From: Psammoneis japonica
Lineage: Eukaryota
Length of the DNA stretch: 64,000 bases
Reading direction: 5' to 3'
NCBI GenBank assembly: GCA_008632985.1
Contig: QPGO01000069.1
Coordinates: 372,001 to 436,000, forward strand
Under the pieces are notes generated by a model that had not been told where the DNA came from, did not search any database, and saw only the letters and a program-made list of their open reading frames with translations. Below, in pieces: positions 31,545-57,649 of the stretch. The first letter of the stretch is position 1, and every line of letters starts with the position of its first letter. The position numbers were made by a program, and so were the translations under genes.

Positions 31545-32420
31545 TCGATCTCAGCCAGCGCCATCCCCGTCTTCACTGCCCAACTGGCTCGCTCCTTCCG
31601 ACATGCAACCCACGGCCTCGCCACCTCCACTGGTGACCCCCGACTCACATTCCCCTTCTACACTCGCTCTCTCCGAACTTGGGCTACATCGAGACAATCT
31701 CTCCATTTGCACCAAGTGTTCCGTCATTGCGGCAATGCTCTGCTGCCATGCCTGGACCCCCCGCCCCCCTCTCTCCCTGCTCCAGTTGAATCTCATCTGC
31801 CCAAGACCCTTTCTCACACCATGTGTCACCTGCGCTTTGCCGACCAACTCGATCACCTTCACCGCCACCATGGCCCGCCACACATCACCACTGTGCTCTC
31901 ATCCATCCTTTCGCCCCCAACAAGTCTTCCATTGCACTTTCTTGCTTGCTCCATGTCACCCCAATGCCTGTCACCTGCCACCGTCCAGCTTGTGTTGCAA
32001 TGTAAACCATGCCCACCCATGTCATCCAACCAGCCTGCTCCCATCCCCTGCCCATCCTGCTCTGGCACAGCTGACCCATGTGGAGATCATGCCGTTTGTT
32101 GCCGCTCTCTCGGCCTCAAAACCACTCTGTCCAACTCCTTGCAAGATGGCCTCTTTGCCATTCTCTAAACTGTCAGACCCCTGTCAGGACTGTGCACCAC
32201 CTCCTCAGATGTGCATCATGAACCCACCAACCTCATTCCACATTCACCACTCAAGAGCGCCCTGCTGACATTGGAGTCAAACTGACCCCTGCCTGCTCCA
32301 CTGCTGCACCCAGCACCCATTCTCATCTTGCTGTCAACATTGCCATCCAAGACCCTGTGACCAAGGCACACCATGCAAGCACAAAATGGAAATTCCATGG
32401 GGCTCACAAAACTCAACATG
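31545..32420 (+). mobile_element. Non-LTR retrotransposon 3' fragment (RLE-type zinc knuckle plus RPAD-like motif)
   Basis: PCPSCSGTADPCGDHAVCC...KTTLSNSLQD at ~32040-32150, then cgccctgctgacattgga (RPADIG) at 32258. C-rich and TA-depleted. Confidence 0.6.
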
Positions 32421-32499
32421 GCACTGCCATCATTGCTTTTCCTCAATTGATGCCGGCATCTGCCTTGTGCCATTCACCATTTCAAGAGCTCGCCAGCCA

Positions 32500-33105
32500 G
32501 AGGCCGCCACTTCAAATGATGCAGCTGACCCCCAAAGCAAGATGCAAAATGGCGGACAAAAAATCCAAAGGCATGTGGAACACCAACTCTGGTGGCAATG
32601 ACTTCCCCATGCAAGCAAGGTCAGGTTTGTTGGCACACTGGAAGAAGGCAATTTCTAGCTGCACACCAAAGAAGCGGTTGATGCTGCGGAGTGTTGCTTC
32701 AACCAAACCAAGGCAATCCAATGTGGTCAACCAATGCAAACGACCTCATTGAAAAGGTCAAAAAAAAGGAAGCCCAGAATGAGAGCATGGCACACCATCA
32801 GAAAGCCAAGGAACACTGGGCTCAGCTCAAAACACTCATGGAAAACCAGACCAAGCCCATGCTGTGGAAAGTGTCTCTCTCATGCCAAGACTGTCCCGGT
32901 TTGTTCAGGCTCACATGATTGGCTGGCAGCACGTTGATGACTGCAATCAGCTTCTAAAAAAGAATTTACCCCCATCTGGCCCCAATGACTTTGTGCGCTG
33001 TGGGCAAGGCCAAATCAGTCAAAGTGCTGTCTGGAAGACAGAGATCCCCCAAACCAAATTCTTGCTGGGGTGATGGACCCACCGCAGTTTTGTCATCTGG
33101 AAAAC
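32500..33105 (+). mobile_element. Crypton fragment B (N-terminal part; homologous to 1290-1830)
   Basis: gcaagcaaggtcaggtttgttggcacactggaagaaggcaatttc (32610-32655) matches the reverse complement of 1682-1726. ..SRFVQAHMIG..DDCNQ.. and PNQIL-like motifs follow. Confidence 0.8.
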
Positions 33106-34849
33106 ATTGCTGCTCTTGACCAGAACTCATCTGTGCTGAATGAGAACCCTGGGTTCTTAACAAGTGCCAGCCAATTGTGAACAAAGCAAATTTAACAATC
33201 ACTTCTAAAGTTGAAGCAGGAAAATGTGCCCAATCTACAGGTCTCCTCATTGCCCATTCAATCTTGACAAGATTGCAGCCACAGTGATTTTGACATGACT
33301 TGGTTTGTGTCCATGATCAAACAAACATGCAAAGCAGGAAACAACAATCAATGAAACTTGTGACTTCCAATCATTTGTTCATTTCTGACAATGACTGCAT
33401 TCATTCATCTCATTGAGATGCTTGTGCATCAGCTGTGTGCTGCTTGTTTCTACAGCGAACATGTTTTTGCTTCGTGTTTGTTGCTCTTCCCTCCTTGGCT
33501 TTGTCCTGTCTCCTGCCAGTGCTCCAGTGCTGCAGCTGTTCTCTGTTGTCTTGCATGATGGTGTGATGCTTTGCTTGCTGCATTCCTTGTCCCTTGCAAC
33601 TGCTCTCACTCACCACAGCTGCATGTTGTTTGTTCCATGTCATGACCTTGTCTCTTTTGCTTGTCATGCCACAGTTTGCCAAAGTGTTGCCTGCAAAGAA
33701 GAGAAAAGAGCTTGCAGCAGATCAGAGCATTGCATGCGTTTTATCTCAAATGGGCTTGGCTTTGTGCAAATGGCATTTCTGCTCACCTTTGTGTGGCTGT
33801 GACCTTGTCTTTTTTGTTTCTTGTGTCAGTTTGCCAAAGCATCATCTTCAAAAAAGAGAAAAGAGCATGCAACAGATGAGAGCATTGTGTGTTTTTTGTT
33901 TTGAATGTGCTTGGTGCAAACTCTGTTTCTGCTCACCTTTGTGCAGCCCCTGCAGGGCCATCTTCCCTTCTGGCTCCCCTTGCATGTCAACATGTCTGAG
34001 TGGAAAGATTGGCAAAAGCATCAGTTGTTTGCATTGTTGCCCAGGCTCCATGCACTTGCCAACTCAGTTCCTCTTCTGTTGCCTTCCCTTGCTGCTGTCA
34101 TTGTCATGATGTTGGATGAGCCCTGTGTTTTGTGTTCTGTGTCTTGTGAGGCAATGATGAATTGTGTGTTCTGGCAATGTTGAGCCTGTCTGCCTGCTGA
34201 TTCCTGTCAGCATTGTTTTTAGGTGACAATTTTGTTTTAAAATTCAACACTCACATTCAGTTTTGAAGGTTTGAAAATGATTTGAAATGACTTGAATGAA
34301 TCATCAAGTCACCAAGGTTTTGCATGTGTGTTTGCAGTTGGTCAATTTCTCATTTTTTATCGTGTTAATGTGTTCTTGTCAAGATGGCATTTTCACAGTC
34401 TTGCTGCCACACACCATCTTTTTTCAATTGCTCTGGGACTTCAATCTCCACAATCTGCTTGATGCCCTCACGACCACATTTTCTTTTTGGTGTGTTGCAA
34501 CAATGCTGCCCAAAAATGTGTGAACTGTCCCTGTGGAGGCAGTGGTGGGCCGGCCATCCTTCTGCTCTGCCAACTGCTCAAACACAGGTGGTGGTCTTGG
34601 CCATGGTGATGCAGGCGGGGCTTGCAGATCTCAAGCTGGACCTCAGCCACAAGAGTCCAGCAGGAGAAGCATTTGGAGAAACCAAGGCTCTGCCACCCTG
34701 GAGCTGCTGCAGCACCAACTGGCAATCCAGCCACTGCTGCCACCTCCATCAACAACAAAGCCACTGCCCACCAGACCAACTCAGCCAATGACCCCCACTC
34801 TCTGGTCATTCCACCCAAAGCTCTTGAATTTCTCATGCTTTGTCACAAA

Positions 34850-35830
34850 ATTCCCGTGATTGTTGTTGCATCCCCTGGCACCCAATGGAGTCTCCTGTGG
34901 CCATCCAAGACAACTGAGCACTTGCCCATCACACATGTGTTTCCTGGTCTCTGCAGGGGTGTGGTGGCTGGGCCAAAGCCAGGCATGTCAGAAAGAAAAG
35001 GGGCTGCATTGATGCAGGACAAGGCCTTTGCTCCCCAACCAAGGTTGTTGTTGGCTCCCCAGGGACACAAGCCAATGGAGTCACCCAAGGCCATCCAAAA
35101 CTGCTGGGCACTTGCACCGTCACACAAAAAGCTCTCTGGCTGCATTGACACAAGACAAGGCTTTTGATTCCCAACCATGGTGGTTGCTGGTTTTCCTGGG
35201 ACACAATGGAGTCATCCAAGGCCATTCAAAGACAACTGGGTGCTTGCACTGTCACACAGAAAGCTCCCTTGTCTCTGCAGGTGGGGTGGCTGGTGGGTCA
35301 AAGCAGTGACCCAAGCCAGCCAACATCAGAAAAACAAAAGGGGCTGTGTTGGCCCAAGACAAGGCTTTTCCTTCCAAGCCATTGTTGTTGTTGCCTCCTC
35401 CAGGACCCAATGAAGTCTCTTGTGCCCATCTCAAGACAACTGCCTGAGTGCTTGCACTGTCACACAGATGGCTCCCTTTTTTCTTTGCAGGTTGGTTGGC
35501 CACCAGGCCAAACCCAGTTGTGTCAGAGAGACAAGGTGCTGCATTGACACAAGACAAGCCTTTTGCTTCCCAGGCGTTGTTGTTGCTGGCTCCCCTGGGA
35601 TCCAATGGAGTTGCCAAAAGCCATCCCAAGACAATTGAGCACTTGCACTGTTGCACAGATGGTTTTCTTGCATCTGCAGGTGGGGTGGCTGCTGGGCCAA
35701 ACCCAGGCATGTCAGAGAGATGGACAAAGGGCTGCGTTGACAAAAGTCCTTTGCTCCCCAGCCGTTGTTGTTGTTGTTGTGTCCTCTGGGACCCAATGGA
35801 GTCATCCAAGGCCATCCCAAGACAATGGAT
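34850..35830. repeat. Degenerate tandem repeat array, ~130-200-bp units
   Basis: Recurrent caatggagtcatccaaggccatc..gacaact..cacttgcactgtcacacaga..ctgcaggtggggtggc at about 34880, 35075, 35205, 35405, 35600 and 35795. Confidence 0.75.
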
Positions 35831-36093
35831 CACACAATGCAAGGGCAGGACAAACATGATCTGCCATTGTCCACAAAGCTGCTGACCTGCTTGCTGAGGA
35901 CAGGACAGGTGTGCTCAAGGGTAAAACCAAGGGTGACAAAGACAACCAAGTTGCACTGTTTTACACAGAAGCAGGTTTTTGGGTTCTGGTTGCCTCCAAA
36001 ATGGGGCACAGTGGTGGCAGATCCAGGATGTTTGCATTCACTGGTTGGTGGGAGCTGCGCATGCTTCATGAGCTTCATCAGCTGAAAAAAAAA

Positions 36094-37538
36094 AGGCAGA
36101 GATCTGACAAATGGAGGAAAAGGGGAACAAATGAAGCTGTTCTTAACAAGATTAAAATGAGAACAAAATGAATCACACAGGTGACTTAACATGATGCTTT
36201 TGGGCCACATCCACGTGGCCATCACTGTGAATTTTGACAAAAACACTCATGACCCAGAAAATCAATTTTTCTTCTTTCCAAAATGCAGACACTCGATGCA
36301 ACTCAAGTCCACCATGGGATGAGTTTTGGCAATTGCAACATTGAACACCAAGTGTGAGAAACACTCAGAGAGCATGTTAAAACCTCAATGTGATCACAAG
36401 GTGTGGGTCCTGAAGAAAGGTTTTTTCACTCAATGCCTCCAATCATCATCTGAACTTTTCACTTGATTTCTTTGTTTCTTCTCTGCATCCCACATGACAG
36501 CAAATGTTTTGAAGGTCATCTAAAGTGGGGTGCATCATGAAGGTGCCCATCACTTGGACAATGCATGCAATGAAGATGATGCAGAAATGCACAAGCTCTT
36601 TCTTTGGCAGCGTTTTTCTTGTCAAAAACAAAGGCAAGCATGTCAATCCTTGCTTGTCACCATCATTTGCAACAATCAAATTGACTCAATGTCTGTGTTG
36701 TCAAACCATCCAAAAGTTTCAATCAATGGCTCAAACACCTCCTTCTGTGACCAAATGAGACAATCCTGGGCAGTTGTCAGGTGTGTCAAAAATCCATGCA
36801 AGTTCCTGAGGAGCCGCAAGCAGTTGGACCTTGGACCCTGTGAATGTGCCAGCTCCAACCAAATCAATTCACAGCACAGCTTAAATTGTTCACTTTGTCT
36901 GCAAAGAAGCATTTTCAAGTGGTCAATGCTTCTAAGATTGGGGTCAATTTGTAGAAAATGCCACTGGCAACAGGCAAATGACAACAGCTGGCTCAAGCCC
37001 TTCTGTCATTCACCCGTTTTCATCATTTTGCATGCATGGAATGATGCGCAGTTTGTCAACAATGCAGATTAAATGCTTTGCAATGGTCCAGGAAGCATCT
37101 GCCACATGGAAGGATGTTGAACATGAGCAACAGCAAGAGTCAATGAGCACAGTCAGTTCCATTTAACCATGAAGGTCAATTTGATCCAAGACTTGGTGAG
37201 TGCACAGGCAGCCCTGTCCTCTGGGCTCCAAGCACTGGAAATCATTGCTGCAATGATGAGAACAGCTTTTGTCAAAGAGCAATTTGACAGAGTGGCACAG
37301 ACAAGTGCTGTTGACAGCCAACCATGACTCCTGGGAGCCACATGCTGTGACCTCAAGGAGATGCAACATGCCACAAGAACAAATTGAACCAGCAAACTCT
37401 GGCATGCAGAGAAAACACTTGCACGAGCCACACAGGTGACTCAAACAAAGGCAGAGAGCTAACAAATGGAAGAAAAAAAATGAAACTGTTCTCAACAAGT
37501 TTAAGATGAGGACAAAATGAGCCACACAGGTGACTTGA
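36094..37538. mobile_element. Degenerate element bounded by ~95-bp direct repeats (36094-36190, 37450-37538); possibly a DNA-transposon transposase relic
   Basis: ggcagaga..acaaatgga..aatgaa.ctgttct.aacaag..taa.atgag.acaaaatga..cacacaggtgactt occurs twice. Internal minus-strand ORF fragments are not confidently assignable. Confidence 0.45.
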
Positions 37539-37799
37539 AAAAGCAAAAAATGTTCAATTGACCTTGTGCCCAGCTGTGTCCCAAACGTGTCCCAAAATCT
37601 GGGTTTCTCTTTGGCACATTTCTGTGCAAATTTGTTGCAGACTTTTGTCCTTGTTCAAGGCATGCTCAGAGCAAATGTGTGCGGTCACAGATTTTAGCAT
37701 GCACAATCATTGCATGCCTGGTGAAAGAAAAAATTGGCAAAACAAGAAGCAGCCAAATGAAAGGTCAAAGCACATGAGGAGACCCTCAAAACGGTCCTC

Positions 37800-38560
37800 A
37801 GGACTCTGCCCAATGTTGTCTCAAAGCCAGAGCTGTCAAGGACAGCACCAAAACTGGATTGTGGCTGTCAGTGCACCCATCAACACTGAATGGCACAGAA
37901 CTCTCATGTCAAGAGACCTGTGACATGCTCTTTTTGTGGTGTGGCAGTGGCCTGCTCCACCAGACCTCCCCAAGCACTGTGACAGATGTGGCTGCAAATT
38001 CTCTGTCAACCATGCCCTTCAGTGCAAGAAGGGTGGCATGGTCATCTCACAACACAATGAAGTGCATGATGACAACCAGATGACCCAATTGGCACAACTT
38101 GCAAACCTTCCCACATGCACAACAAATGAACCTGTTGTTGACCCTGCTGGTTGCATCTCAGGAAGCCCAAGCAAGTGACTCCAATGGCACCCCAGGCAAC
38201 ACCAACTCCAACAAGTCCAAGGATGGTGATTGCAAAGATCTTCTGGCCATGAGCTTTTGGGACACAAGGTCAGACATGGTGTCAGACATTTGTGCCCCTG
38301 ATGCAGGCATGAAGTCACACCCATCAAAAACACCAGAAGAGGTCCCATCAGACCATGAACATGACCCTTTGTTGCATCATGCAATGGACTGCTTGGCAAG
38401 GAAGCCAAGGCAATGCTTCTCCTTTTGATTGCATCAAAGCTGTCTGATGGGTGGCAAAAACCTTGTTTGGAAGCATGCGGCTGCATCAAAGTCAGGATGA
38501 TCTTCACAACAGTTTGGGTGACCCATTTTTGCCTCAGGGAGATCCCAAGTGGGAGGATGG
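37800..38560 (+). mobile_element. CRE-like non-LTR retrotransposon 3' fragment (CCHC plus restriction-like endonuclease)
   Basis: PPDLPKHCDRCGCKFSVNHALQCKKGGMVISQHNEVHDD (canonical C-x2-C..HAL.CKKGG..RHNEVRD), then DLLAMSFWDTRSDMVSDI (RGDLL.RGFW...D). Confidence 0.75.
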
Positions 38561-39129
38561 CACAGGTCTGTCCCTCAACAGGCATCAAGGGACCACAATT
38601 TGGTTGGAATCCACTCATCCAGACAGAGTGTTAACCCAGTGTCTCTGCAAAGACTGCCGATGTCAAGTTGACAAGATGATAAAACCCTGCCACAGTGTTG
38701 ATCATGGTGCCAGAATCCACTTGAATTTTGCATGCACAGACAATGAAAACTTGTGCAACAACTTCCTCTTGCTTGCATGACTGCATCAATTGCACAACAC
38801 CCATTCTCTCTAAAATTAGGAGCTTGTTATGAAGAATTTGGAGTTCTGCTGGACACAAGGACATTTGTGACTTAAAAACCACCCCATGAGCAAGACAAAA
38901 TTGAAAATTTTGCAAATTGATCATTTGTGGAAGCAATCAGCACAAATGTGAAAATTCTGATCGTCAATCAGTTCTCTTCTGGCTGAGCATGGAAACATGT
39001 CACAGATGGTTCTTTTGCTTGGCAATCCAGCAAGAGGCATTTTGAGGTGCAGGAGGTGGTGTGCGGCAGAACAGACACCTCACATTTTTGGATTAACCAA
39101 CAACCTCATCTGCCAGAAGGAGCAGAAAA

Positions 39130-39670
39130 GGTGAAGTGATGCACTCCGAGGCAAGGTCAATGTTGTGCGTCATGGAAGAGCTCAAAGCCAGTGCTGGGAC
39201 AATTGTCATGCACAGTTGGAGCATCAACTTGCAAATGTGAAAAGCAGTGTGCAATGCCTTGCTTCCCAACCTGCATTTGGAGTTGTGCAAAATCAAAAAA
39301 GCAACCAACAAGCAGCCCAGCAGGAAATGCCCCACCTCATCAAGGTGCGAACAACAATGACAACCCAAACCATGTCCCTTGTGAGAGCACGCTGGTGCCA
39401 AATTCAGGGACTGCTCACATTCTGCCATGGCAACAGCATGAGAATGGAGTTGGTGGAAGGAAAGCAGTGCCACAAGCCTTTGTCAGAGAGGAGCGTGATT
39501 GAGTCAAGCACAAAAAGTGCCACAGAAGGAAGGTTTTCTCTGGGACATGGTGGCTGGGCTTGTCCAAGCTGGTTTGAGTGCTCAAACAGCTTGTGATCAT
39601 GTGCATCAGGTTCATGGCAGTGCAGCACTCAAATTGTCAATGCACTGAAAGAATGTGACAAGCACCACAA
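39130..39670 (+). mobile_element. Crypton fragment C (C-terminal part; homologous to the reverse complement of 1-525)
   Basis: gagaatggagttggtggaaggaaagcag and gtggctgggcttgtccaagctgg align with copy A. ORFs 39093-39473 and 204-479 are visibly homologous. Confidence 0.85.
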
Positions 39671-41564
39671 CACAGTGTGAGTCCATGGCTGTGACTGCAC
39701 ACTCCATGTCAGCTCATGTCTGTTTGTGTTGCACGCCATGTTCAATGTTCATGTTGCATGCCATGCATGCTTTCTTCACTCTTCTTTTTAGAGCCAAAAC
39801 ATTTCTTGAGTGTTCCTTCCAATTGAAGCACCAGCATTTGGGTGCTGCTTGCTTTTTCTGACAAATCCATCTTAATGGAATGAATTTTTACACAACAAAA
39901 ACAAGCCTGTCAGATCTCTGTGCAGCTGGCATCAAAAACTGTTTGGATGTTCTTTGTTGCCATGTTCAAAACTGATGCTGTGTTGCACCCTCACCTTTTT
40001 CATGAAGAAGAAACAATGCACAAAGATGGAACAAAGTTGCAAGAAGAGATCAGAAAATTTTGAGGACAAGCAATTGAAGATGAATCTTTCTAAAAAAAGA
40101 CACAGAGAAGGGTGGGCTGTGCAGCAGCAAAGGGAAGCACCAAACTGATGAGTGGTGCATTGCTGTGCATGAGCTCCAAACTGAAAGAGCTTGCGTGTCC
40201 CATTTGCAACAACATCTGCATGTCCTGCACACAAGAGAGGAAAGGAGGGGTGGTTGCCTTGATGCACAGTGTCAAATCAGAGGCTCTCTCTCCTGGGAAA
40301 CTGAAAGCTCACCTGCTTGTTGCATCTGGTGCAGTCCACCCCAAGGAGAAACAAGGCCACAGACTTGGCAAGAGAAGCCCTGCTTGAAAAAAGGCTTGTC
40401 AATTTGAGGAGCAGTGCAGGGTGCAAGATCACCAGCTTGTTGGCAATTTTCAGGGAGGCAACAAAGCTCAAGCCCTCATTCATCCAACTGGGGCAGCATT
40501 GGGTGAAGCAGTTGAAAATGTGGCTCTTCTACAGGCTGAAAAAGAGACACAACATTTGTCCTGCTGCACTCAAAAATTGTGAGCTGGGCAGAAGTCCCTC
40601 CCCTGATGGCTGGAAAACATGTTGACAAGAAGTGTGACAGGGTCATGCACCCTCACAAAATTGTTGGGGTGCCACATGATTTTGTTGCTGCAACTCCCAC
40701 AGCATTCTTTGTGCCAATCAGAGTGCACCTGGGGCAAGATGGGGGATCTGGAAGGTGCAGCACATAAACCAGTGGAAAGGAAAAGGAGCAACTCATTGTG
40801 CTTTCTCCAAGAAGAGCAACAAGTTGTGGCCATTTGTGATTTGGAAAGGTGCACCGGTGAGGCACAAGACAAGAGCTGGGGTGGGGGAAAGACAAGCTTG
40901 ATGGTGAGCGTCCCTCTGAAGACAAAAGATTGCAGCAGCAGCATCAAAGACTGTCAATTCCTTGGGTGAGTTTGCAAATGATGTGTTGGGTCATGACGTT
41001 CTTCCTGGCACAAGGGCAGTTGATTCAGAGGGAAAGGAAAATGGGGCAACGCCAGCAGCGCTTTTGTTCATGGCTTCAAAAAGGGCATTCAAAGCAGTGC
41101 ATTAAAGACAGGACAGCAGAAGGGATTGTGCCCAAAACACAGCTTATTGACACTTTGATTGACAAAATGTGAAAGGCGCTCTGTTGTTGGGACCTCTGTG
41201 TGATGTGCACATGCACCACTGGTGATCCAATTGATCCATCCAGGCAGCTTGTGGTTGTGCAGTGGACATTGGAGGCCTGTGAGAAGGTCCCTGAGGAGCT
41301 GGTTTGCAAGTCCTTGCTTCTCGGTTGCTGGCAAAGAGGAGGATCTAACTAATGAGCCGGTCCAAGAACCTGCACAGCCAAAGTTGAAGCTGAAACAGCA
41401 GCAGAGTGCAGAGACAGAATTGTTCACTTAACCAGCAATGCAGTGGGCAAAGATGTGGCAACCGTGCTGAAGCAGTCAAAGGATTTTGATGGAAGCAACA
41501 TGGAGGATGACAAGGAGGATAAATTGTGCAGTTGTCTCATTTTTGTTTTAGCAGAACAAACCCT

Positions 41565-41754
41565 TGACAGAACACCGAAGGTCAATGATGACAGAGGTGT
41601 GAAAGACTCCCCAAGCACTGGGACTGTGACAACACGAGCACCAGTGGCTGGATGAGAAGTGAGAGGCAGATCTCAGAGAGATCTGCTCGTCCATCCAAAT
41701 GTTCTGGTCATCATCCGTGTGCAGTCTGTCCATCACAGGACAGATGGGCTGACA
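41565..41754 (-). repeat. 3' LTR of the Copia element
   Basis: tgacagaacaccgaaggtcaatga...gggctgaca, preceded by TSD accct and followed by the PPT complement ccctcccc. Confidence 0.9.
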
Positions 41755-44700
41755 CCCTCCCCTGATCTGCAATGTCTAAAGATGGAAGACAATGCAAATC
41801 AAAACAAAAGCAGGGACAATGCAAACAGAGAGACCAAAGGACACAACAAGTGTCCAAGCCCAATGCGCAACAGACAAGGGGGCAATGCACAGCAGGGGAG
41901 GCCACCACAAAAAAAAGTCAACGGCAGTGTCCCATCATGCATCGAGCGTGGCGAGCATGGAGCGCCCATCCCAAAGCCTTGGCAAGGTCATTGCCAGGAT
42001 TGACAATGCCAGGGATGTGTCAAGTGACAACTTCCCTGCCTCCTTCCACTCTTGGATTGCAAAGAACTGAGTTTCAATGTGGCGTGAGCACTTGGCAGGA
42101 ACAGAGTGGTTGATGATCTTGATTGCCAATTCGTTGTCAACATGCAGGGGCAGGCTTCATCTGGAGAAACCCAATTCATGAAGAACATGGCAGAGACAAA
42201 GGACATGTTTGGCAGCAGTGCCAGCAGCATGGAATTCTGCTTCCACAGAACTTGTGGTGGTCACAGATTGGGTCTTGCAACGGAAGGAGATGGCAGCACT
42301 GACCAACATGCAAGCATGACCTGTCATAGAATGGCAATTACAAAGATCATTGCCATGGGCAGGATCCAGAAAAGCAAGAAGTTGATGGTCACATTCAGCA
42401 GTGGGAAAGGACGGCAGTGCTGGGTCAGCAATCAACCATTCAAAAGGACAGGTGGGCAGACTGGAATCATGTTTCACCTTCTTGCAATTCAACTCCCAGT
42501 GCTTGGTTTGCCAAAGACATTTGCATGCACCCTTCAGCACATCACAGCAGCGCACTGCAGCAGGGCAGGCAGAGAATTTTGAAAGGGTGGTGACAGCATG
42601 GCCAACATCCAATTGACGTGTGACACACATGTGCAACAATTCACCAAGGAGAGTGCGGCATCCAAATCCAGCAGCCTCTTCAAGCTCCGCATGCTTGGGT
42701 GCACCTTCAGCAGGACCAATGGCAGGGCACAACTCTTGAATGGAGTCAACTGGGATGGGAGTTGCCTTGAATTTGTCAGCAAGTGTTCATCCAAAGCCAT
42801 GCCCATTCAATGCAACTGTGGACAGCAATGCCAATGGAGTCATTGCACTGGTGAATGTCCACACCATCAAACTCTTCAATGAGCCCAAGACACTTGAACG
42901 GCAGAGCAGCTTCCAAGGAAAGTTGGTGGAGAGCTTTGCCAATCTTGTCGCAGATCTTGATTGCATGTGATTCTTTTGGACATGCAATCAAAAAATCATC
43001 AACTTGATGCAGCAACAAGATCTTGTGTCCTTCAAACACAGCAAAGTGGGTGCATTTGTCATGCACAGCATTGCAAAACAATGAGGTCACATTTGAAAAA
43101 ACAGAGTTGATGTGATTCTCCCAGCCAGAGCATGCCGGCTTCTGGGTGTCCTTGGAGTGCATGTCTCATCAGCAACACCATGCTTCTGTCCAAGTCAATG
43201 CCAAAGCAGGACTTGCACCAAGTCACATGTGCATCGTCTGTTGCAACACAGACGGGATGAGATGGCTGGGGTGAATGCGCACAGGCATCATGAGCATTGC
43301 CTCCAAACACAGGATGGCTCACAGCAGCTGCCAAAGCAAAAAACATTCATTGCACAGGCTGTTCAACACAAGAGGAGTGCATCAAATGAAGATGGTGTAG
43401 AACAGAAGCTGCACATGGAGAGCTGTCACAACATTGTCAAGAACGATGTGTGCCATCATGCTTGAGATCACATTGCCAATGTGGACGTGGGACGACAGCA
43501 TCTTTGGGATGCTTGGTTGGGGCACCAAACATGCCCAATTCATGAAACTGATCTAATTGCTTGAACTCGCCTGCATGCCATTCAGGCCATGCAGACAGCT
43601 TCTTGAGACAAGTTTGGGTGAAAGCACCCAATGCCTGCTCCTCGGGAGTCATGGTGTGGGAGGACATTGCATGAATGTCAACAACACCATTGTCATGATC
43701 AGTGGAGACAGGAGGAAGGGTCTTGTCATTGTGGATGTCAGGAAAATCAGCACCTGGATGATGAATTGTGGCAATGGCATGCATGTTGGCGGTGGTCAGC
43801 TCTGGGACATGCTCGTCTTCAGGGTCCGGGGTGGGAGAGAAGATGTTGTGTTCCACCAAGGCGCGTTGCAATGCTTTAGAATCAAGTCAACGTTCAGGCA
43901 CAAAAGCAATTTCAAAATGAGTCTTGCCCAATTCATGTGTGTGTTGCAGACATTTGACGGTGTCTTCAGCAGCAAAACATGTTGGTCATTGACCAAAACA
44001 ATGCAAGCACCCAGGATCTTGTTTTGCATTGCCTTCAGGGATGAGAACAGGCAAGCAGCAGGAGTGCCACATTTGACATCAGAGACAAACACTTGTTGAC
44101 AGAGTTTGTTCACAGTCAAAGACAAATCAAAGTCGGGATCAGCAAAGGGGTCCTTCATTGCATGTGTGATGGTCTGGGCAAAAGGGTTGACACCGAAGTG
44201 AAATTCATCAACCGTCATTTCCTCTGGCTCAGCAGGAAATGGCTCACCAGCCTGAGCACACTCCAAGTGGACTGCATTCTGAGGAACAGCTCCATGATCC
44301 AGGTCATTCATGCCCTCGTCAAACCAGATGTGTGTTTGGCAAGCTTGACCCAAGATGTCTTGGCATCATGCCACAAAATGTTCTTTGCAGCATCCGGAAG
44401 ACAGCCCAGGAACATGCCCTTGCAAGAGTTGGTCCAGAATTTTGCCAGACAATGGTTGGAAGTGTGGATCCAAACCCGGCAACCAAACATTCGGAAGGCA
44501 GTGAAGTCATCCTTTTGACCAGCAGCAAGGGCAATCGGGGCAGCAGTCTGTCATCTCTGGATGGCACAGCATTCTTGATCCAAAGGCAATGATGAAAAGC
44601 ATGCGACCAAAATTTTGTGGGCAAATCAGCACCTGTCAGCATCGCCCAAATGGCATTCACAATGGCCAAATGACTCCGTTCAACTGGGCCACTCTGGTTT

Positions 44701-47700
44701 GAAGCATCTTTCCCAGCAGGACAAATTGCACAATGGAAGTCATCCTCAAAAAGTTGCCAAGCCGCTGGTTGTTGTGCAGTTTGCCACCCTGATCCAGAAA
44801 AACATGTTTGTCTGGACATTTTGGCAAGTGCTCTTCCAGAAAGTGGCAAATCCAATTCAACGGAGCAGCCTTAGAAACACGAGTGGTGCCATGGAGGTGC
44901 TTCGTAGTGCAATCACAGACAGTGATCCAACAAGTCTTGCCATTCAAACCAACGCAGTCCTTGGCACATTCTTCATTCTTAGATCATAAGCCAGAGAAAG
45001 AAAAATCTGCTGTGAGACCTTGGTGGGGTTGAGTGGCAGTCAAAGCATGTTCGGACCAGCAGGTTCCTTTGTCTGCTCAGCACGGATGCAAGTGGGACAA
45101 GTGTCAAGGGGAGATGCACCATGTGCAAACTTTGGAACACCATCAACATGTTCATGGGCATGATGCAAACAGTGATCACTCAGATGGCCAAGTCATTGAT
45201 GCCACAGGAGACGTTCCGCATCAGCCTTGAGGGATTGAACAGGAACAGTCTTCTTGGCATGTTCCTCAAAAGGCATGTTCTGACAACATTGGGGAATCAA
45301 CTGTCATTCCACACATGAAGCATCATGTTGGTGTCCACAATGTGCTTCAATCATGTGCACCAAGACTGCTTCACATTCTTCAGCAAAGGATGGATCAGCA
45401 GTCTTCAACCTTGCAATGGATGCATTGAGTTCATCGTGAGATTCCGGCAGCACAAGTGGGTGAGTGCAACATTTGCCATTGATCAATTTCCCATGCATGA
45501 CAATGTCCTGACTCTTGTGCAGTTGATGCCGTGCAACAAATTTGCAGGCTCCAAGGTTGTGGAACTTGAGAATGCAATCAACATTGCAATCTGTGTGATG
45601 GGCACTGTTCTGGCACAGTGGCAAGCACTCATCTGCCAAGGTGGACTGAATCTGCAGGTGGCAGCATGTGCGGACCTCAACAAAACCATCAGAATTCTCT
45701 GCAGGCACATGAAGACATCCGAAGCCAACTGGCACAGCTTCATGTCCAAGAGCTGGGTTGACAGCAAGTGGGCACGGATTCCTCATTGAAGTGAATTCTT
45801 GACATCAGTGGAGGAGATCACGATCTCCAGCACAGGCAATGTCAGCATCACCAGCATCCAGCTGAGCACATCATTCATTTGGTGCAAACTTGACAGCGTT
45901 GATGGCACATGTCATGCGAGCCAATTCCAGTGCAGTTGGTTCAAGGATGTGGGATGGGTCAATCAGAGTGACTCGGACAGAGTTTGCTGCAGCAAATCCA
46001 TCTTCAACAGCCATGTCATCACAGGTGAGATTGATGAATTCCACATGGTCATGTTCATCCTTCCCCTGGTCCAAAGGATCTGGAGCAGGATCATCATCCA
46101 CTTCAACATGGGGGAGAGCAGGGTTGTCATCCGGTGGCTTGGTGATGTCCGAGGATGCCATTGGGTGGGAGCATGGGCACTGACCTTGGGGTCTTTGGAA
46201 TTCAGAGGAATGCATTGCTGCTTCCCTCTTCAGAAGCTGACAAAAGCACACATGGAAACCCTCGATGCATGGATTGCCATTCAAGACAGGGCACTCATGG
46301 AATGAGTGTTCCTTGGAACAGATGATGCGCGGTTTCTTGGAGGCCTCATTGGGAGCAACCTTCAGTTTGCATGCAGAAGCCAAGCATGCATGATGAAGGA
46401 GATGATCCTCATCTGCAGGTGGCACATCCATGTCAGCCAGTTCTGCACAAAGGGCATCAAATTGGTCATCCGGCGGATCATCTGCATCATCTGGCACCTC
46501 AACAGAATCATCCTCATCAAGAGACACGTCCGGGACAGACAAAGCATTGACATCAAATGTGGCATGCTTGGGGTCTTCTTGATTCCGGTCCCATTTGTGG
46601 TGGATTGCAAGGATTTGCACAAGTGCAAAGTGAAGGACTGCCCAGTTGACGAAGGAAGTCAGAAAGAGTTTCAACAATCTGAGCATCTGTGTGCTTCTTG
46701 AGCACACTTGTGGACTTCCATTCATCCCCAGTGGTGTGGGACAAGTGCTTGGAGCATTTGGTGTTCTTGATGAATGCAGTCATCTCTTGTGGATCATCTG
46801 ATGTAGAGTCCGCATCAAAGACACAAGTGCACAACTGTGGAAAATCATTGAAAACCATGTGGCAGTCCATCAATGACAGATTGCCTTGAGCAAGACAGGA
46901 ATCTGCCAATCCAGCAGCTTCATGGTCAAAAGCTGGATGATTCTTGTGGACACTCTGCTTGAGAGCCTTGCTTCCATTGCCACAGCAGGAGGCAACAATC
47001 CGATGGTGCTTGCTGTTCTTGGGGAACATGTCTGACTTGGATGGAATCTTGTGGAGAGAACTCTGGGCTTCTTTGCAATGGACATGCACGCATTGATGTG
47101 AGTCATCATCCTTGCCGTTTCCAATCATGAAACCCTTCTCACCACCTTGATCCTTGGTGAAACACCACAAAGGGTGGACGCAGTGTCCTGAATTGAAAGA
47201 GTGGTGTTGGAAGTTTTGATGCCATGCCTGTGTCCCAGCAGGAGAGTCATCATGACAGATGGGAGGTTCCCTGAACAACATTTTCTGATCAGGAGTTGAG
47301 CTCATGACATGAAGCATTCCATCATTGAGAATGATGTGATCAGAAGCATCAACATGATGATGGAAACCATGGTCACAGTGGATGAGAAAACTCTTCAGGG
47401 CAGCCGCACCATGTTCCTTGCAGCCGCATTGTTCTCATGCATCAGTGGGTGGAGTGTTGGGTTTGAAGAGACACTTCAATGTTGTGGATGATGTGGCACT
47501 TCCTGATGTCTTGGCAGTGGCAGTGGAAGGTGGAGCATGGCTCGACACAAACTTGTGGAGGGCTGTCGCCAAATCATTCACACTGACAGTCGCAGTTCCT
47601 GAACCAGTCCAGGATGAGGGTGCAGGCTGTTGCTTCTGCTGGTGGGGCCCAAGGGAAAACTCTTTCCAATCCTGATGATTCCATGTTGCATCTGGATCAA

Positions 47701-48320
47701 CATGGATGTGTGAGCAGAGATGACAATGAATGAGGTCTGATCATGACTTTCTGAAGGTTCATCTTGATCATGGATGACAGAGCTGCAGACATCAAACAAA
47801 TTGCACAAGGCCTGTTGGGGTCTGCAATGCAGAACAGAGCTTGGTCCACAATCATTTTGATGGATTGCATGTCCGCAGGGTCCACCGTGCAAGGTGGAAA
47901 CGCTTGATTGACAAGACAGTCTTGGAGCAAGTCTGCAACACTCGTCTTGGGTCAAGCATGCTCTGGATTGTCAAAGAACGGGTCCAGATCAAATGTTGAA
48001 TCCGCGTGGATCTCATTCAGGCATGCATGGAGATGTGGCATCGTCGTGTGTGCTTGGAATTCACGCAACAGATCTCTGCAACAGACGCAGGAGCAGCCTT
48101 TGCAAGGTCGGGAGACGCCATGGTTTTACTTGGGGAAAACATTTTTGGTCATGCACGTGCAGAAATCTGGCGTGTTTCTACGGTCGTGAAAAATGCGGGA
48201 AAACACGAAAAAATTTGTTTCAGGAACAAAGACGAGGCTTGCTCGATCGGCTCACAAAACAAATGAATCGAAACAGAAAGTGTGGCGCAGAGTTCTGTGA
48301 CACAGCGCAAGGCCACAACC

Positions 48321-48470
48321 TGACAGAATGCCGAAGGTCAATGACAATGGAGGTGTAAAAGACTCCCCAAGCACTGGGACTGTGACAACATGAGCACCAG
48401 CAGATGAGAAGTGAGAGGTCTGGTCATCATCCGTGCACATTCCATCCATCGTACGATGGACAGGCTGACA
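48321..48470 (-). repeat. 5' LTR of the Copia element (internal ~40-bp deletion relative to the 3' LTR)
   Basis: tgacagaatgccgaaggtcaatga...caggctgaca followed by TSD accct. Confidence 0.9.
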
Positions 48471-48543
48471 ACCCTCTGCTCTCTGCCGGCACTCTAGAGA
48501 GCAGATTGGCACCTCTCCCCTTGCAGCTTTGGCAGCACTGGTT

Positions 48544-49860
48544 AAACCAGGCCTGCGGGGAGCATTGACCACTTGTCTTTCTTTTTGTGGGTGTGGGTGT
48601 GTGCCGTTGCATGCTGCATTGCCTGTGCGCACGCAGGTGGCAGCGTGGCCACCACACCGGTGACGCGGATGACCGTTGTGTCTGATGTCTCATGCCATTT
48701 TTGGGGCTGCAGCGAGGTGCACGGACACTCTTTTTTTTCCAATTTATCGCCACAATGGCGCATCGCACAAACTCACTTGTTGTTTGATGTGTTTTCCCAG
48801 TGTGACTGTCTCGTGCAGAATTCACGATTGATTGTCTTTGTTCACAACTGAGTGCATTTTTCAACATGCCACGCCGGCAATCCCAATTTTTGAGAACTTT
48901 CGAGCTCTCCTGAAAAACCGTGCCACGCACCCGTCGCAGGGAATTTGTCGATTTTTTAGGATGTCCCCACGACCTCTCATGTCCTCAATGATCATTCTGC
49001 GAATCCAAAGAATTCATCTGTGCCAGACAACCCATGCCGTTCCAAAATCTGAGGGACACACTTTCAAATTCAGATGGACTGCCCGACTGCCCGACTGCCC
49101 GACTGCCCGACTGCCTGACTGTCCGACTGCCCGACTGCCGGACCGACACGAAAAAGTCTGCAATCACCAACCACTGAGTGGTCAATGAAATGTGTGCTTG
49201 TGGAAACCAGGCCTGCGGGGAGCATTGACCACTTGTCTTTCTTTGTGGGTGTGGGTGCATGTGTGCCGTTGCATGCTGCATCAGGGCCCTGCTGCCGGGG
49301 CCGGCATTGTGGCGGCTGAGTGGCATGGCCACCGCACCGGTGACGCGGATGACCGTCACATTTGATGTCTCATGCCATTTTTGGGGCTGCAGCGAGGTGC
49401 ACGGACACTCTTTTTTTCCAATTTATCGCCACAATGGCGCATCGCACAAACTCACTTATTGTTCGATGTGTTTTCCCCAATGTGACTTTTTCGTGTAGAA
49501 TTCACGATAAATTGTCTTTGCATGTAACTGAGTGCATTTTTGAACATGCCACGCCGGCAATCCCAATTTTTCAGAACTTTCGAGCTCTCCTGAAAAACCG
49601 TGCCACGTGCCCGTCGTAGGGAATTTATCGATTTTTTAGGATGTCCCCACAACCTCTCATGTCCTCAATGATAATTCCAAGAATCCGAAGAATTCATCTG
49701 CACTAAACAACCCACACCCTTTCAAAATCCAAGGGACACACTTTCAAATTCAGACGGACAACCCGACTGCCCGACTGCCCGACTGCCCGACCCCCCGACT
49801 GCCCGACTGCCGGACCGACACGAAAAAGTCTGCAATCACCAACCACTGAGTGGTCAATGA
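48544..49860. mobile_element. Two tandem ~650-bp copies (48544-49188, 49204-49860) of a non-autonomous element with subterminal inverted repeats, a (GACTGCCC)n microsatellite and a terminal hairpin (MITE or Helentron/DINE-like)
   Basis: CATTGACCACT at 48563/49223 is inverted as AGTGGTCAATG at 49177/49849. Hairpin ACCACT-G-AGTGGT. 8-bp repeats at 49077-49140 and 49762-49812. Confidence 0.7.
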
Positions 49861-50051
49861 TCTGCACCTGTTTCTGCGGACCCCTTCATACCCTGCACTA
49901 CATCTGAACCAAATTCAGTAGACCAGATTTTCGATGACTAGGAAATTTGTGCCAAGATGAAACGGGAAACTCTAACCTAAAGTACAAGCATGAATTTGCT
50001 GAAATCTGAGAGAATGCATTATGTTTAGTTGTGAAGTGTGGTTGATCTAGT

Positions 50052-52762: not shown

Positions 52763-53149
52763 CGTGAAAGAAAGCGTGGTTAGAGAACCCACAAGCTTTT
52801 TATGAGAAGGCATCAATCAAAGCCGAATGGTTGTTGTGCAGATCAACAGCGCGACACGTACGTACGCGTCGTCGACGTTGGATCTTTATTTTTTTCGTGG
52901 CGGGAAAAAGCGTGGCGAAGTGCCACCTTTCCTTCACTCTTTCCCATTGAATACTAATTTTTTCGAAACAGATGGAGGAATCGTGGCCAAGATTCAATCT
53001 TTTCAAAAAACATTCCAAATCACAAGTCCGAAGCCAAGATTCCTTCTCAAAAGATTCCTGTGGTGACGGGCAGACCGCCCGAAAATGCTGAACTAAGATA
53101 GATAGACAGACAGTCGCGACGACCAGACTGTTGGCAGGGGTTGGCCACG

Positions 53150-53720
53150 ACATGTCATTCGTTCATTCAAGCAAAGCGGAAGACTTCACAGTTGAACAAT
53201 GCAGAGCAGATTGAGACTGGTGAGGCCCGAACACAAAACGAAGACGAGGCTGTCCCCAAAATCATCTGTGGGAGGAGGCAAAATGCTGCTTTGCATTGGT
53301 TTTTGCTTCCAGCATGCAGGCTGTGGCTGCAAGCCAATGTGCGCCAGGCTGCCCATGTTGTGACTCCTCCTCCTCACTGTTTCAAGCTGGAGGCAGGCCA
53401 GAGTTTTGCAACCGTGCCAGGTTCTTGTAGGAGCAAAACGCTGCGTTGTTGTGCCGCACAGTGCATGCTGGCAAGGACAGAGCAGCTGCTTTCTCTCTTT
53501 TCTCTGGAGGAGAAAGCTGGCCAAGAACAGCTCTTTGCCCAGACTCCTCTGTTCTTCGTTGGCATCTCTTGACCCTTCAACAACTGGGAAGTGAAGAGAG
53601 TTCTTGCTCAATGCCACTGGCTGCCCTCCATCTCCTGGGCACTGCTGCCATGCTGTTTGTCAAATTTCGTGTCTCTCAAATTTCTCTGAACAGATGGACC
53701 TGCCTTGTTGTTTGTGGTTT
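53150..53720. mobile_element. Small TpA-depleted insertion or relic between the TKL and ASF1 promoters
   Basis: About 570 bp in which I see one TA (near 53429) and excess CA/TG, embedded in normal intergenic DNA. Confidence 0.5.
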
Positions 53721-54120
53721 GACTAATCAAACGTCTTTCAAAAGAGTTTATTTTTATCTTTTGATGAGTGCCGTTGCGTTGTGTTGGGTTTTCTCTGCCG
53801 TGTGTCTTCGAGCTCCGAAAAGTAAACCTCGCGCGCCAGGAATGAAGAGAAAGCAAGCCCGTAGAATTTGTACCTGGGTGCTACCACCCGGTGATCGAGC
53901 TGTCGCGTTGCGTTTCGCCGCATTTTCTGCTTCAGCTTCAGCGACGACACAACACCCTTGATCGGTTTGTGCTTTGAGAGTTCGACACAGCGTTTGCTAT
54001 TCTTATCGCTATACCAGCCGTTTCTCAGCAGGATCATCTCTACGTTTATCAGTCATTTTTGCTTCGAGTTATTCCGAAATTAGCAATTAGAACTGCATCA
54101 TACAACATAAATCTTTCACA

Positions 54121-56533: not shown

Positions 56534-57649
56534 TAGAGAGGAGTCCATTTTGGCGTGAGGAATCGATCCTGCCATGAGGACAGTTCGTTCTATTAAGTAA
56601 TTATTGACAGACCCCCACGACCATTATATTGCGGTCATGGTCTTTTATAATGAAACCTCTATTGACTATGCCCCAGTGTTCAACAATTCGTTAATCGCCA
56701 AAGGCTATATCTAGCTTTTTAGCTTCTACTCTCTGCTAGAGCTAGAATAGTACGGTACAGTAGTAGTAGCTCTCAATTGCGACCAAATTTGAATAAAACA
56801 TGCCACGCGGCAATTAAGGCGGACCGTCGGCTTATTTTTTTCGCACGTCTTTCCGGGTTTTCAGCATTTTTGACGGGTCGCGACAGAAAATAACACGACA
56901 AAAGCACGAGCGACAATGATGATGTTCGCGACGAGCGGTGAGTTGCAAAGTATCACCTCACGAGGGACACTCATTGGTTTTATTATCATGATGTGGTGCA
57001 GATTGATTCACATGCTTTCGTCCCTCGTGCCACTGGGCCAATTTTGAGAGACAGCGCAATGGCCGTCATCGTCGTGCTTCGATCGCGGAGCATGGCTGTT
57101 CTCGTTTTTCGAGGGCGATCGAACAATTCTTGTATTTAAAATTAACAAATGTAAATAAACGCATCCAAACACAATGCCAATTTTAGGATCAAATGCTGAA
57201 AAAATATGTCGGCGGTCCCCCTTAAACGCTGGGGCCCTGCTTTGTTGAGGTTGGAGTCCTGTGCTGTCAAAAACATGAATCGCGCCCGCCCACATGCATC
57301 GCGAGGTTGGATGCAGCTCTCTGACTCAAGTCACATGAAACACAACCCTTGGAAATGCTTCGCCACCTTCCTCATGCCAGCTTGCAACTCCTTTTCTGAA
57401 CAAGCCAGAGGCCTGCTGACAGACATCCGAGATGGGGAGTGCACTCCCTTGTGTCGGACAGACTGGCACAGACAGCACAGAGAGATCCGATGATCTCTCT
57501 CTGCTCACTTTCTTTCTCATCTGGTGCACAATCATCATCTGTCCTAGATGTCCGTTGGATCATCCCGACACCGCCAGTCCGCAAGGTTGTGAGCAGCAGT
57601 GCGCTGTTTGTCTTCCTCAACACAGCTGCGCTGCAACGTTCACTGTGTG

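Follow-up and report, generated by a model that had tools for sequence, protein, structure and literature searches.

TpA-directed hypermutation as the probable cause of TpA loss from mobile DNA in the diatom Psammoneis japonica

Introduction

The diatom Psammoneis japonica carries, in a 64,000-nucleotide stretch of contig QPGO01000069.1 (assembly GCA_008632985.1, positions 372,001 to 436,000 of the forward strand; hereafter the window), long blocks of DNA from which the dinucleotide TpA is almost missing, next to host DNA that retains it. What removed TpA from these blocks? An original prediction, made from the sequence of the window, held that every transposon relic in it had lost TA through a new genome-defence system that resembles fungal repeat-induced point mutation (RIP), acts on adenine and is triggered in methylated DNA. 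A TadA/ADAT-like DNA adenine deaminase and Pol eta-type error-prone repair were offered as the agents. Fungal RIP changes C to T, mainly at CpA, raises TpA and is triggered by duplication. Pol eta-type error-prone repair changes A to G at the WA motif, which covers both TA and AA.

Mutation directed at TpA has been measured in the chlorarachniophyte alga Bigelowiella natans (Rhizaria). According to the preprint that describes its mutation-accumulation lines (Mettrop et al., bioRxiv 10.64898/2026.01.13.699255), integrated nucleocytoplasmic large DNA virus (NCLDV) and virophage DNA received 231 of the 302 nuclear mutations. The rate reported for these target regions is ~6e-7 per site per generation, ~1000-fold over background, with nearly all changes being A>G/T>C at TpA and with activity in some lines only. 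The reported long-term signature consists of TpA-poor, CpA+TpG-rich genes that are enriched in reverse transcriptase and DDE domains, and the authors propose an ADAT2-like DNA adenine deaminase as the agent. The main text of the preprint mentions neither trinucleotide context nor diatoms or stramenopiles.

Results

TpA is almost absent from five blocks of the window

We scanned the composition of the window in 1-kb windows and expressed dinucleotide counts as observed/expected ratios (o/e). Five TpA-poor blocks were found, at 1-2 kb, ~16.5-19.4 kb, ~31.9-49.2 kb, 53.1-53.8 kb and 57.25-64 kb (Table 1). At this resolution, TpA o/e was 0.00-0.13 in 32-48, 17-19, 58-64 and 1-2 kb compared to 0.44-0.80 in most host DNA. 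The o/e of CA and TG together was 1.5-2.0 in the blocks compared to ~1.0-1.3 elsewhere, and CpG o/e was 0.06-0.28 in the block cores. When the blocks were pooled (29,604 nt), they contained 110 TpA (o/e 0.06) and 415 CpG (0.23), with an o/e of 1.73 for CA and 1.76 for TG. The pooled host DNA (30,804 nt) contained 1,153 TpA (0.58) and 1,816 CpG (0.97), with 1.21 for CA and 1.10 for TG.

The depletion lies far beyond chance when the counts in the window are set against expectation. Region 31550-49870 has 81 TpA where 1,208 are expected, and no TpA at all was found in 1-423, 42341-43397 and 44990-46803, where 22, 68 and 117 are expected. The longest stretch without TpA spans 2,111 nt, compared to a maximum of 222 nt within host regions. 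The near-absence of TA that had been noticed by eye was thus borne out, and the three intervals named as TA-free proved exact. The wider statement that every transposon relic has lost TA stands for the depletion of all five blocks, whereas a transposon class could be given only to the Copia and Crypton-like elements and the other blocks are unclassified.

Pyrimidine-purine (YpR) steps as a whole were conserved, at 240.6 per kb in host DNA and 235.5 per kb in the blocks. Per kb, the blocks have lost 78.7 TA+CG and gained 73.6 TG+CA relative to host DNA. Loss and gain nearly balance while total YpR is kept, as expected from transitions confined to YpR steps.

Host DNA adjoining the blocks (30951-31500, 49200-50000 and 56800-57200) had a TpA o/e of 0.2-0.5 while its CpG was normal or high. 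The process may have spread slightly beyond the blocks, or promoter composition together with window smoothing may account for the low values.

Ancestral TpA was changed to TpG or CpA

To polarise the changes, relics were compared with protein relatives of two element families, a Ty1/Copia retrotransposon and a Crypton-like DNA transposon, whose identification is described below. For Copia, the comparison was confined to 299 sites at which at least 6 relatives align and at least 70% of them agree. Tyrosine was kept at 0 of 11 such sites, being replaced by TGY Cys (6), CAY His (4) or TGG Trp (1), compared to 199 of 262 non-Arg residues kept (Fisher p = 3e-7). Arginine was kept at 8 of 26 sites and the remaining codons are now TGN or CAN, which indicates CpG decay; in the blocks this decay turns Arg into Cys, His, Gln, Trp or stop. 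CpG decay and the loss of TpA are superimposed, as had been predicted.

The same direction was seen across codon boundaries in the Copia relic. At first codon positions, A had become G in 12 cases (Thr>Ala, Ile>Val, Asn>Asp, Lys>Glu), and 10 of these changes follow a T. The 27 ANN codons that were retained are preceded by a C in 15 cases and by a T in only 1 (p = 1e-6 against the changed codons). In the Crypton-like family, 1 of 31 tyrosines was kept, with 13 now Cys and 12 now His. With looser thresholds and both families taken together, 55 ancestral Tyr sites have become Cys (TGY) at 24, His (CAY) at 19 and other residues at 11, and 1 is still Tyr. Conserved tyrosines thus appear as Cys or His, as the original prediction had read them, except that its example EAEFHAA is not a Tyr site, since intact relatives have EAEFLAA there. 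The proposed A>G change on either strand at TpA could be polarised in proteins of both families, and also in the DNA of a metagenome Copia family (see below).

These results show that the TpA scarcity of the blocks is a product of mutation, not of native composition. The contrary explanation, that these element families are naturally TpA-free, has nothing in its favour beyond the composition itself. Tyr makes up 2.8-6.6% of residues in all 17 closest relatives, which include two proteins from Nitzschia inconspicua, and 3.0% in the Crypton-like relative P0273, so intact members of the families are not natively free of TA. The relics are moreover broken, and their copies disagree with one another as CA versus TG. 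We regard a native origin of the composition as negligible in probability.

The changes took place in DNA, in place and on both strands

If each copy was hit separately, one ancestral TA may now read CA in one copy and TG in the other. We counted such CA-versus-TG discordances in paired copies. Six transposable element (TE) pairs gave 11, 12, 8, 4, 8 and 3, and four host-repeat controls gave 0, 0, 0 and 1. A seventh TE pair (35138-35642 versus 35342-35833) was left out because its ranges overlap and the sequence was aligned to itself.

The young tandem pair 48544-49188 / 49204-49860 is informative about the source of the discordances. Both copies retain CG at 31 sites, with 7 at which they differ, whereas for TA the corresponding numbers are 2 and 6, and 8 CA/TG discordances were counted. 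CpG loss is so slight here that TA must be the source of the discordances. By a rough fit, each copy took ~1.4 hits per TpA, ~0.1 per CpG and ~0.03 per other site. In the putative long terminal repeat (LTR) pair of the Copia relic, YpR steps account for 10 of the 13 difference events, including 6 CA/TG discordances.

Neighbouring TG and CA states were uncorrelated (same-neighbour fraction 0.498, z = -0.43, overdispersion 1.18), and strand-coordinated tracts, which were sought among these states, were not found. Sense and antisense hits were about equal, as judged from the 24 Cys and 19 His at ancestral Tyr sites. We conclude that TpA was changed in DNA, in place and on both strands. The involvement of a DNA transposon, the balance between sense and antisense and the uncorrelated neighbours speak against editing of RNA or cDNA, and also against processive tracts on a single strand.

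RNA-level A-to-I editing of transcripts by an ADAR-like enzyme, or editing of cDNA, could in principle leave similar changes if reverse transcription and reinsertion then fixed them. A preference of ADARs for a 5' U is cited in the Discussion of the B. natans preprint (bioRxiv 10.64898/2026.01.13.699255), and the best-studied element here is a retrotransposon. The Crypton-like DNA transposon is nevertheless hit equally, independent hits separate the copies of the putative LTR pair and also of the tandem pair, variants of the same locus differ at TpA, and non-coding flanks and nested fragments are all depleted. Together with the sense/antisense balance, this makes an editing origin scarcely credible.

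TpA loss can be separated from both CpG decay and duplication

Several stretches are nearly free of TpA (o/e 0.05-0.12) yet have a CpG o/e of 0.9-1.2, namely 16401-16750, 47951-48350, 48601-49200, 57501-57950 and 1501-1800. In these CpG-normal stretches ~85-90% of TpA has been lost, compared to ~18% of CpG. TpA loss is thus separable from ordinary CpG decay of the 5-methylcytosine (5mC) type, and the idea that the process is triggered in methylated DNA did not hold. AA and TT were not depleted, with an o/e of 1.23 and 1.18 in the blocks compared to 1.14 and 1.17 in host DNA, which speaks against the Pol eta (WA) option.

Host tandem repeats served as controls for duplication. These internal repeats, at 11281-13575 (+), 19982-21722 and 21805-24543 (-), have normal TpA and are built from units of 978 nt (three copies, 77-92% identity), 352 nt (five copies) and 264/204 nt inside a 912-aa open reading frame (ORF). 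In the pair 11323-12533 / 12301-13511, which represents the 978-nt unit at 92% identity, the two copies share TA at 30 sites and have 0 CA/TG discordances. Across host tandem repeats of 92%, 87% and 88% identity, TA is present in both copies at 30, 46 and 28 sites, again with no CA/TG discordance. Duplication is therefore not the trigger, the trigger is unlike that of RIP, and the description of the process as RIP-like has to be given up.

Related Copia copies show graded, copy-specific conversion

To find the same signature elsewhere, we examined the 150 best database relatives. Tyr made up less than 0.5% of residues in 9 of these 150, compared to a median of 3.7%; the sources were ENA and JGI metagenome assemblies. 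Across 51 conserved Tyr positions, the nine low-Tyr relatives have Tyr 1, Cys 26 and His 15, whereas nine controls keep Tyr at 51 of 59. The 80 metagenome loci that encode relatives (L001-L080) have a median TpA o/e of 0.67 with a tail down to 0.05. None of these loci was near-identical to the window, and a search for related loci with P0256 alone gave no relative.

Of the 80 loci, 55 fall into one DNA family (at least 80% identity), and ancestral states were taken from its 41 TpA-normal copies. Ancestral TpA was converted at 22 of 23 sites in L076 (TG 15, CA 7), 16/23 in L053, 16/22 in L030, 12/23 in L049 and 8/23 in L035. In L076 there were 0 transversions at TpA, and transitions affected 39 of 74 TpA bases compared to 19 of 426 other A:T and 13 of 423 other G:C. 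The polarised spectrum of this copy thus has the excess of TpA transitions over other sites that the predicted process implies. GC-biased gene conversion was ruled out, since A:T sites outside TpA were barely touched.

TpA-normal copies carried 0-3 transitions per ~68 TpA bases, and CpG and other changes were alike in all copies. At other sites, copy L012 has diverged further than L076, yet only 7 of its 71 TpA bases have changed, which indicates that the process is copy-specific rather than clock-like. Across the family, conversion ranges from 0 to 22/23 at similar overall divergence, a range that is a snapshot and not a time course. Near-identical copies from different assemblies also differ at such sites: L034 and L035 by 1 difference (CA/TA), and L052 and L053 by 3, one of them CA/TA. 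Within this one Copia family (L076, L030, L052/L053, L057, L049/L046, L035/L034), every grade of TpA conversion from none to complete was present.

These data bear on untargeted neutral decay, that is, old relics subject to genome-wide, context-dependent TpA instability and CpG decay. It would accord with the host TpA o/e of just 0.58 and with the evident age of the relics, which carry many stops and have 73-88% identity between copies. It does not accord with host repeats of like divergence, which keep TA in both copies and lack CA/TG discordance, with the loss of ~85-90% of TpA where CpG is largely kept, or with the range of conversion in the metagenome family at similar overall divergence. 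We consider neutral decay very unlikely.

Public sequencing data reproduce the TpA-free sequence

We then asked whether contigs from public sequencing runs contain the same bases. Only one public DNA run (X1) carries the stretch, with 75% of the sampled words of 39.9-49.9 kb present. Contigs of this run reproduce the main block at a word depth of 55-66, compared to 59.1 and 57.6 for the host flanks; in this run, large parts of 33-38 kb and 44-50 kb are multi-copy. Since the contigs consist of exact 31-mers at ~57x depth, the reads are taken to be accurate, and a base-calling artefact is excluded to that extent. Two further runs of the same sample (X2 and X3) contained almost none of the words of the block, and contigs of X2 lay on the host flanks only. 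Among the public runs listed, no RNA run carried the stretch.

An artefact of sequencing or assembly would require that a modified base in silenced DNA was miscalled and that TA is really present. A single public run, possibly the source sample, leaves some room for this. With that caveat, the TA-free sites were confirmed by the contigs of X1, whose depth over the block is like that of the single-copy flanks. The frames bear coding consequences (Tyr>Cys/His and TGA stops), and the same signature occurs in proteins and contigs of unrelated assemblies. An artefact can be set aside almost entirely.

Compared with the window, X1 contigs had 21 differences in 6,473 nt of the block (six long pieces, 2-6 per contig) and 1 in 1,898 nt of the flanks. 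The denser differences in the block, small in number, recall the excess of single-nucleotide polymorphisms in the hypermutable region of B. natans. Among the differences listed, 27 were at single-copy depth, comprising 5 transversions and 22 transitions. These transitions were CG<->TG/CA in 13 cases, TA<->TG/CA in 8 and other in 1. As TpA is very rare in the block, 8 TA<->TG/CA differences are a large excess, and TpA hypermutation is probably still going on.

The preferred target is TpA followed by a pyrimidine

Surviving TpA in the blocks has a distinctive context. YTAR accounts for 61 of the 110 survivors (TTAA 25, CTAA 18, TTAG 12, CTAG 6) compared to 181 of 1,153 in host DNA, whereas RTAY accounts for 5 of 110 compared to 322 of 1,153. 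Survival relative to host density was 0.35 for YTAR, 0.063 for RTAR, 0.079 for YTAY and 0.016 for RTAY. A model in which the two strands are hit independently predicts 0.075 for the two mixed classes, close to the 0.063 and 0.079 observed. The counts fit an attack on an A that lies between a 5' T and a 3' pyrimidine of the same strand (5'-TAY-3'), or equivalently on T in 5'-RTA-3'.

The same preference was seen in nine partly converted metagenome copies, in which 91 of 240 TAY and 14 of 158 TAR were converted. When each site was counted once, the figures were 25 of 28 for TAY and 9 of 18 for TAR (p = 0.005).

Identity of the elements and other features of the window

Features of the window are listed in Table 1. 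An exhaustive HMMER search, for which a read-through frame was the query, returned 5,734 relatives. The full-length relatives P0123 and P0124 contain gag_pre-integrs, SH3_retrovirus and RVT_2 domains, and 23 relatives align along 41.5-45.7 kb on the minus strand. By this homology the element at 41.5-48.5 kb is classed as a Ty1/Copia LTR retrotransposon with a putative LTR pair. Pfam gave a single match in 150 stop-to-stop ORFs of the main block (SH3_retrovirus at 44311-44550), 0 matches in three read-through frames of that block in which TGA was read as X, and 0 matches in 21 ORFs of the other blocks.

The Crypton-like relic was recognised with P0273 (641 aa), residues 1-635 of which matched 1-1914 (-) by tblastn, with 56-59% identity across three frames. 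Pfam recognised GCR1_C in P0273 (E 2e-7), and its Atlas neighbours carry NDC10_II/GCR1_C (0.97) and Phage_integrase/DUF3504 (0.88-0.90). CryptonF elements are described as having a tyrosine recombinase and a C-terminal GCR1_C (PMC3212892). No tyrosine recombinase domain was matched by Pfam in P0273, even at E 10, and a PDB sequence search with it gave nothing meaningful, so that the label Crypton-like stands on GCR1_C and these leads. The sole ancestral Tyr kept in this family lies in the relic at 930-932 (-), in ...SDLYDDVEL (...SDVYDDVEL in P0273), downstream of HSxRK and RGRW strings. These strings resemble tyrosine-recombinase boxes, so that the retained residue may be the catalytic Tyr. 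Its survival is probably due to chance or to a GTAT context that is hit late.

Relaxed tblastn with 15 element proteins gave no match in 16.5-19.6, 33-38.7, 45.8-48, 53 and 57-64 kb. At the left edge of the second block, 16401-16750 is TpA-free with normal CpG. An unclassified part of the main block (34856-35833) contains five copies of a ~200-nt internal repeat (families D10 and D12) with a depth of up to ~3,000 in X1. DNA without TpA has no TAA or TAG stops, which results in long spurious ORFs: 31-50.5 kb has 25 stop-to-stop ORFs of at least 150 aa, and 60592-61947 (+) holds a meaningless ORF of 452 aa without a Pfam match. In host DNA, 24542-25859 and 26811-27924 form a diverged inverted duplication (69-75% identity in three blastn pieces) with normal TpA.

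Table 1. Coordinates of the TpA-depleted blocks, the elements recognised within them and a host gene
Feature	Position	Strand	Remarks
Crypton-like DNA-transposon relic, truncated by the window edge	1..1950	-	13 TpA vs 119 expected; CpG mildly low (o/e 0.62-0.68)
Unclassified block poor in TpA and CpG	16450..19400		TpA o/e 0.03-0.17; no Pfam or tblastn match
Main TpA-depleted block, nest of several elements	31900..49200		Tails fade to ~31.5 kb and ~49.9 kb
Crypton-like fragment, N-terminal part	32441..33111	+	tblastn P0273 E 8e-14; blastn pair 1257-1776 / 33093-32562, 73.5% identity
Crypton-like fragment, C-terminal GCR1_C part	39138..39672	+	tblastn P0273 E 1e-14; blastn pair 6-523 / 39672-39138, 77.8% identity
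Ty1/Copia gag-pol relic (integrase, reverse transcriptase, RNase H), many TGA stops and frameshifts	41500..45720	-	142 tblastn high-scoring segment pairs; 23 full-length relatives
Putative 3' LTR remnant of the Copia relic	41565..41760	-	Direct repeat with 48321-48460
Putative 5' LTR remnant of the Copia relic	48321..48460	-	Direct repeat with 41565-41760
Tandem pair, ~660-nt high-copy unit	48544..49860 (48544-49188, 49204-49860)		87% identical; TpA-poor, CpG near-normal; depth 3,900-8,700 in X1
Transketolase gene (host)	50052-51908	-	83-89% identity to proteins of Cylindrotheca, Odontella, Nitzschia and a Bacillariaceae metagenome-assembled genome; none identical
Small unclassified TpA/CpG-depleted block	53100..53800		TpA o/e 0.06; 1 TpA vs 28 expected in 53200-53700
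Unclassified TpA/CpG-depleted block, continues past the window	57250..64000		13 TpA vs 415 expected; no Pfam or tblastn classification
LTR-like copy in block 57250..64000	59344-59722		blastn matches 48189-48418 and 41587-41733

Discussion

A process of the same kind as in Bigelowiella natans

Mobile DNA at this locus has very probably undergone locus-restricted, DNA-level TpA>TpG/CpA hypermutation of the same kind as in B. natans. The direction of the change, its context, its strand symmetry, its origin in situ and, within the window, its restriction to mobile DNA were observed directly in the comparisons above. In the process that we propose, the A:T pair of TpA would become G:C, giving TpG or CpA. 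It would act in situ and independently on each strand, would prefer 5'-TAY-3' and could run up to saturation. Its targets would include both a retrotransposon (Copia) and a DNA transposon (Crypton-like), with neighbouring host genes and host tandem repeats spared, and the agent would be an enzyme recruited to silenced or foreign DNA.

Several points weigh against this interpretation. Host DNA has itself a TpA o/e of only 0.58, which indicates some general loss of TpA too, and for three of the five blocks neither Pfam nor tblastn gave a transposon class. Restriction to mobile DNA is established for 64 kb only. The evidence comes from the comparison of sequences. Run X1 is possibly the assembly's own source sample, its library type is not on record, and the type of difference is known for 40 of the 133 X1 differences. 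The metagenome family may come from another host, and its copies that were counted for context share ancestry. Inside the window alone, the test of Tyr-codon context is suggestive only (p = 0.063).

The agreement with B. natans covers the near-exclusive A>G/T>C change at TpA, the confinement to foreign or selfish DNA and the TpA-poor, CpA+TpG-rich signature. Activity was uneven between lines there, and the graded conversion of copies here would fit such unevenness. The present case differs in its host, a diatom (Stramenopiles) rather than a chlorarachniophyte (Rhizaria), and in its targets, transposon relics rather than NCLDV and virophage DNA. It is saturated (o/e 0.06), whereas the hypermutable NCLDV DNA of B. 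natans is reported still to have a Rho of 0.45 (bioRxiv 10.64898/2026.01.13.699255). Strong CpG decay is superimposed here, unlike in B. natans, and a 3'-pyrimidine preference was found that the main text of the preprint does not describe. The rate in B. natans was measured directly, whereas the process in the diatom is known from the comparison of sequences.

The original prediction called this a new system. That part did not survive, as the same process had already been measured in the mutation-accumulation lines of B. natans (bioRxiv 10.64898/2026.01.13.699255). Its statement that no description exists in diatoms agrees with the literature searched, in which no report of TpA hypermutation in diatoms was found; an apparent match for 'TpA' in PMC4504042 proved to be 'Tpase'. 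What is new here is the diatom lineage, the involvement of both transposon classes, the saturation, the uncoupling from CpG and the TAY preference; the kind of process has been described before.

Candidate chemistry

Of the candidate agents, we favour a TadA/ADAT2-type polynucleotide adenine deaminase as the most likely, although we put it forward tentatively. A strand-local context at -1 and +1 together with an A>G outcome fits an adenine deaminase. The natural substrate of TadA, U33-A34-C35, resembles the 5'-T/3'-Y context found here.

A different chemistry would place the primary event in a base modification, either of thymine at TpA (similar to 5-hydroxymethyluracil (5hmU) or base J, made by a TET/JBP dioxygenase) or as a symmetric adenine mark, with T>C as its mutational shadow, as CpG decay is for 5mC. 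TpA is self-complementary and 5'-TAY-3' on one strand is 5'-RTA-3' on the other, so that the data cannot tell T from A as the attacked base. The hits are strand-independent and uncoordinated, as would be expected if duplex DNA carried the mark. Dinoflagellate 5hmU may itself prefer TpA. In dinoflagellates, TET/JBP-made 5hmU is reported to be enriched on repeats and to silence transposons (PMC11572971). We have seen no evidence for such a mark in diatoms, and in contigs from accurate reads there are fixed G:C pairs rather than modified bases. That half-sites survive multiplicatively (0.075 predicted; 0.063 and 0.079 seen) suits a strand-local reader, such as a deaminase, equally well. A modification of this type seems quite improbable to us.

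A broader conjecture would embrace either chemistry. TpA loss could be the mutational trace of a base modification not yet described, or of a DNA base-editing enzyme, by which silenced mobile DNA is marked in two or more lineages of the Stramenopiles-Alveolata-Rhizaria (SAR) group, diatoms and chlorarachniophytes among them. Such a system would read the strand-local motif 5'-TAY-3' (equivalent to 5'-RTA-3') and would not depend on cytosine methylation. We regard this as unlikely, though worth stating for its consequences (see below).

Relation to other known systems

The process shares with fungal RIP the principle of mutational genome defence, in which transitions in one dinucleotide context inactivate mobile elements. 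Unlike RIP, it changes A:T to G:C, removes TpA and raises CA and TG, and it leaves 978-nt host repeats at 92% identity untouched. It is accompanied by CpG decay in the same blocks (CpG o/e 0.06-0.28), as in 5mC deamination. However, 5mC deamination cannot remove TpA, which here is lost even where CpG is intact (16.4-16.75, 47.95-48.35, 48.6-49.2 and 57.5-57.95 kb).

ADAR hyperediting and APOBEC3 action on animal retroelements are likewise deaminase-type hypermutation that serves as defence, and ADAR has a 5'-U preference. These enzymes act on RNA or minus-strand cDNA and are strand-asymmetric, whereas here both strands and a DNA transposon were hit at a fixed locus. Dinoflagellate 5hmU is similar in its SAR lineage and in its non-canonical thymine chemistry on repeats with silencing (PMC11572971). 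Unlike the present case it is a modification with no reported mutation spectrum, and the main text of that report gives no TpA context.

Significance

Converted elements no longer have Tyr codons or TAA/TAG stops, are invisible to Pfam and contain spurious ORFs. Transposons are consequently under-annotated in such DNA and false genes are likely to be called; gene callers predict false genes in the converted DNA of B. natans too, as the preprint reports (bioRxiv 10.64898/2026.01.13.699255). TpA o/e is a simple detector for DNA of this type.

TpA hypermutation in a rhizarian alga and in diatoms points to a widespread, perhaps ancient, eukaryotic genome defence. The enzyme, which is possibly a natural DNA adenine editor with TAY specificity, would be easier to find if the gene contents of the two lineages were compared, and the diatoms include genetically tractable species. 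If the broader conjecture of a TAY-reading mark or editor were true, there would be a second dinucleotide-based chromatin or defence code beside CpG, possibly ancestral to SAR.

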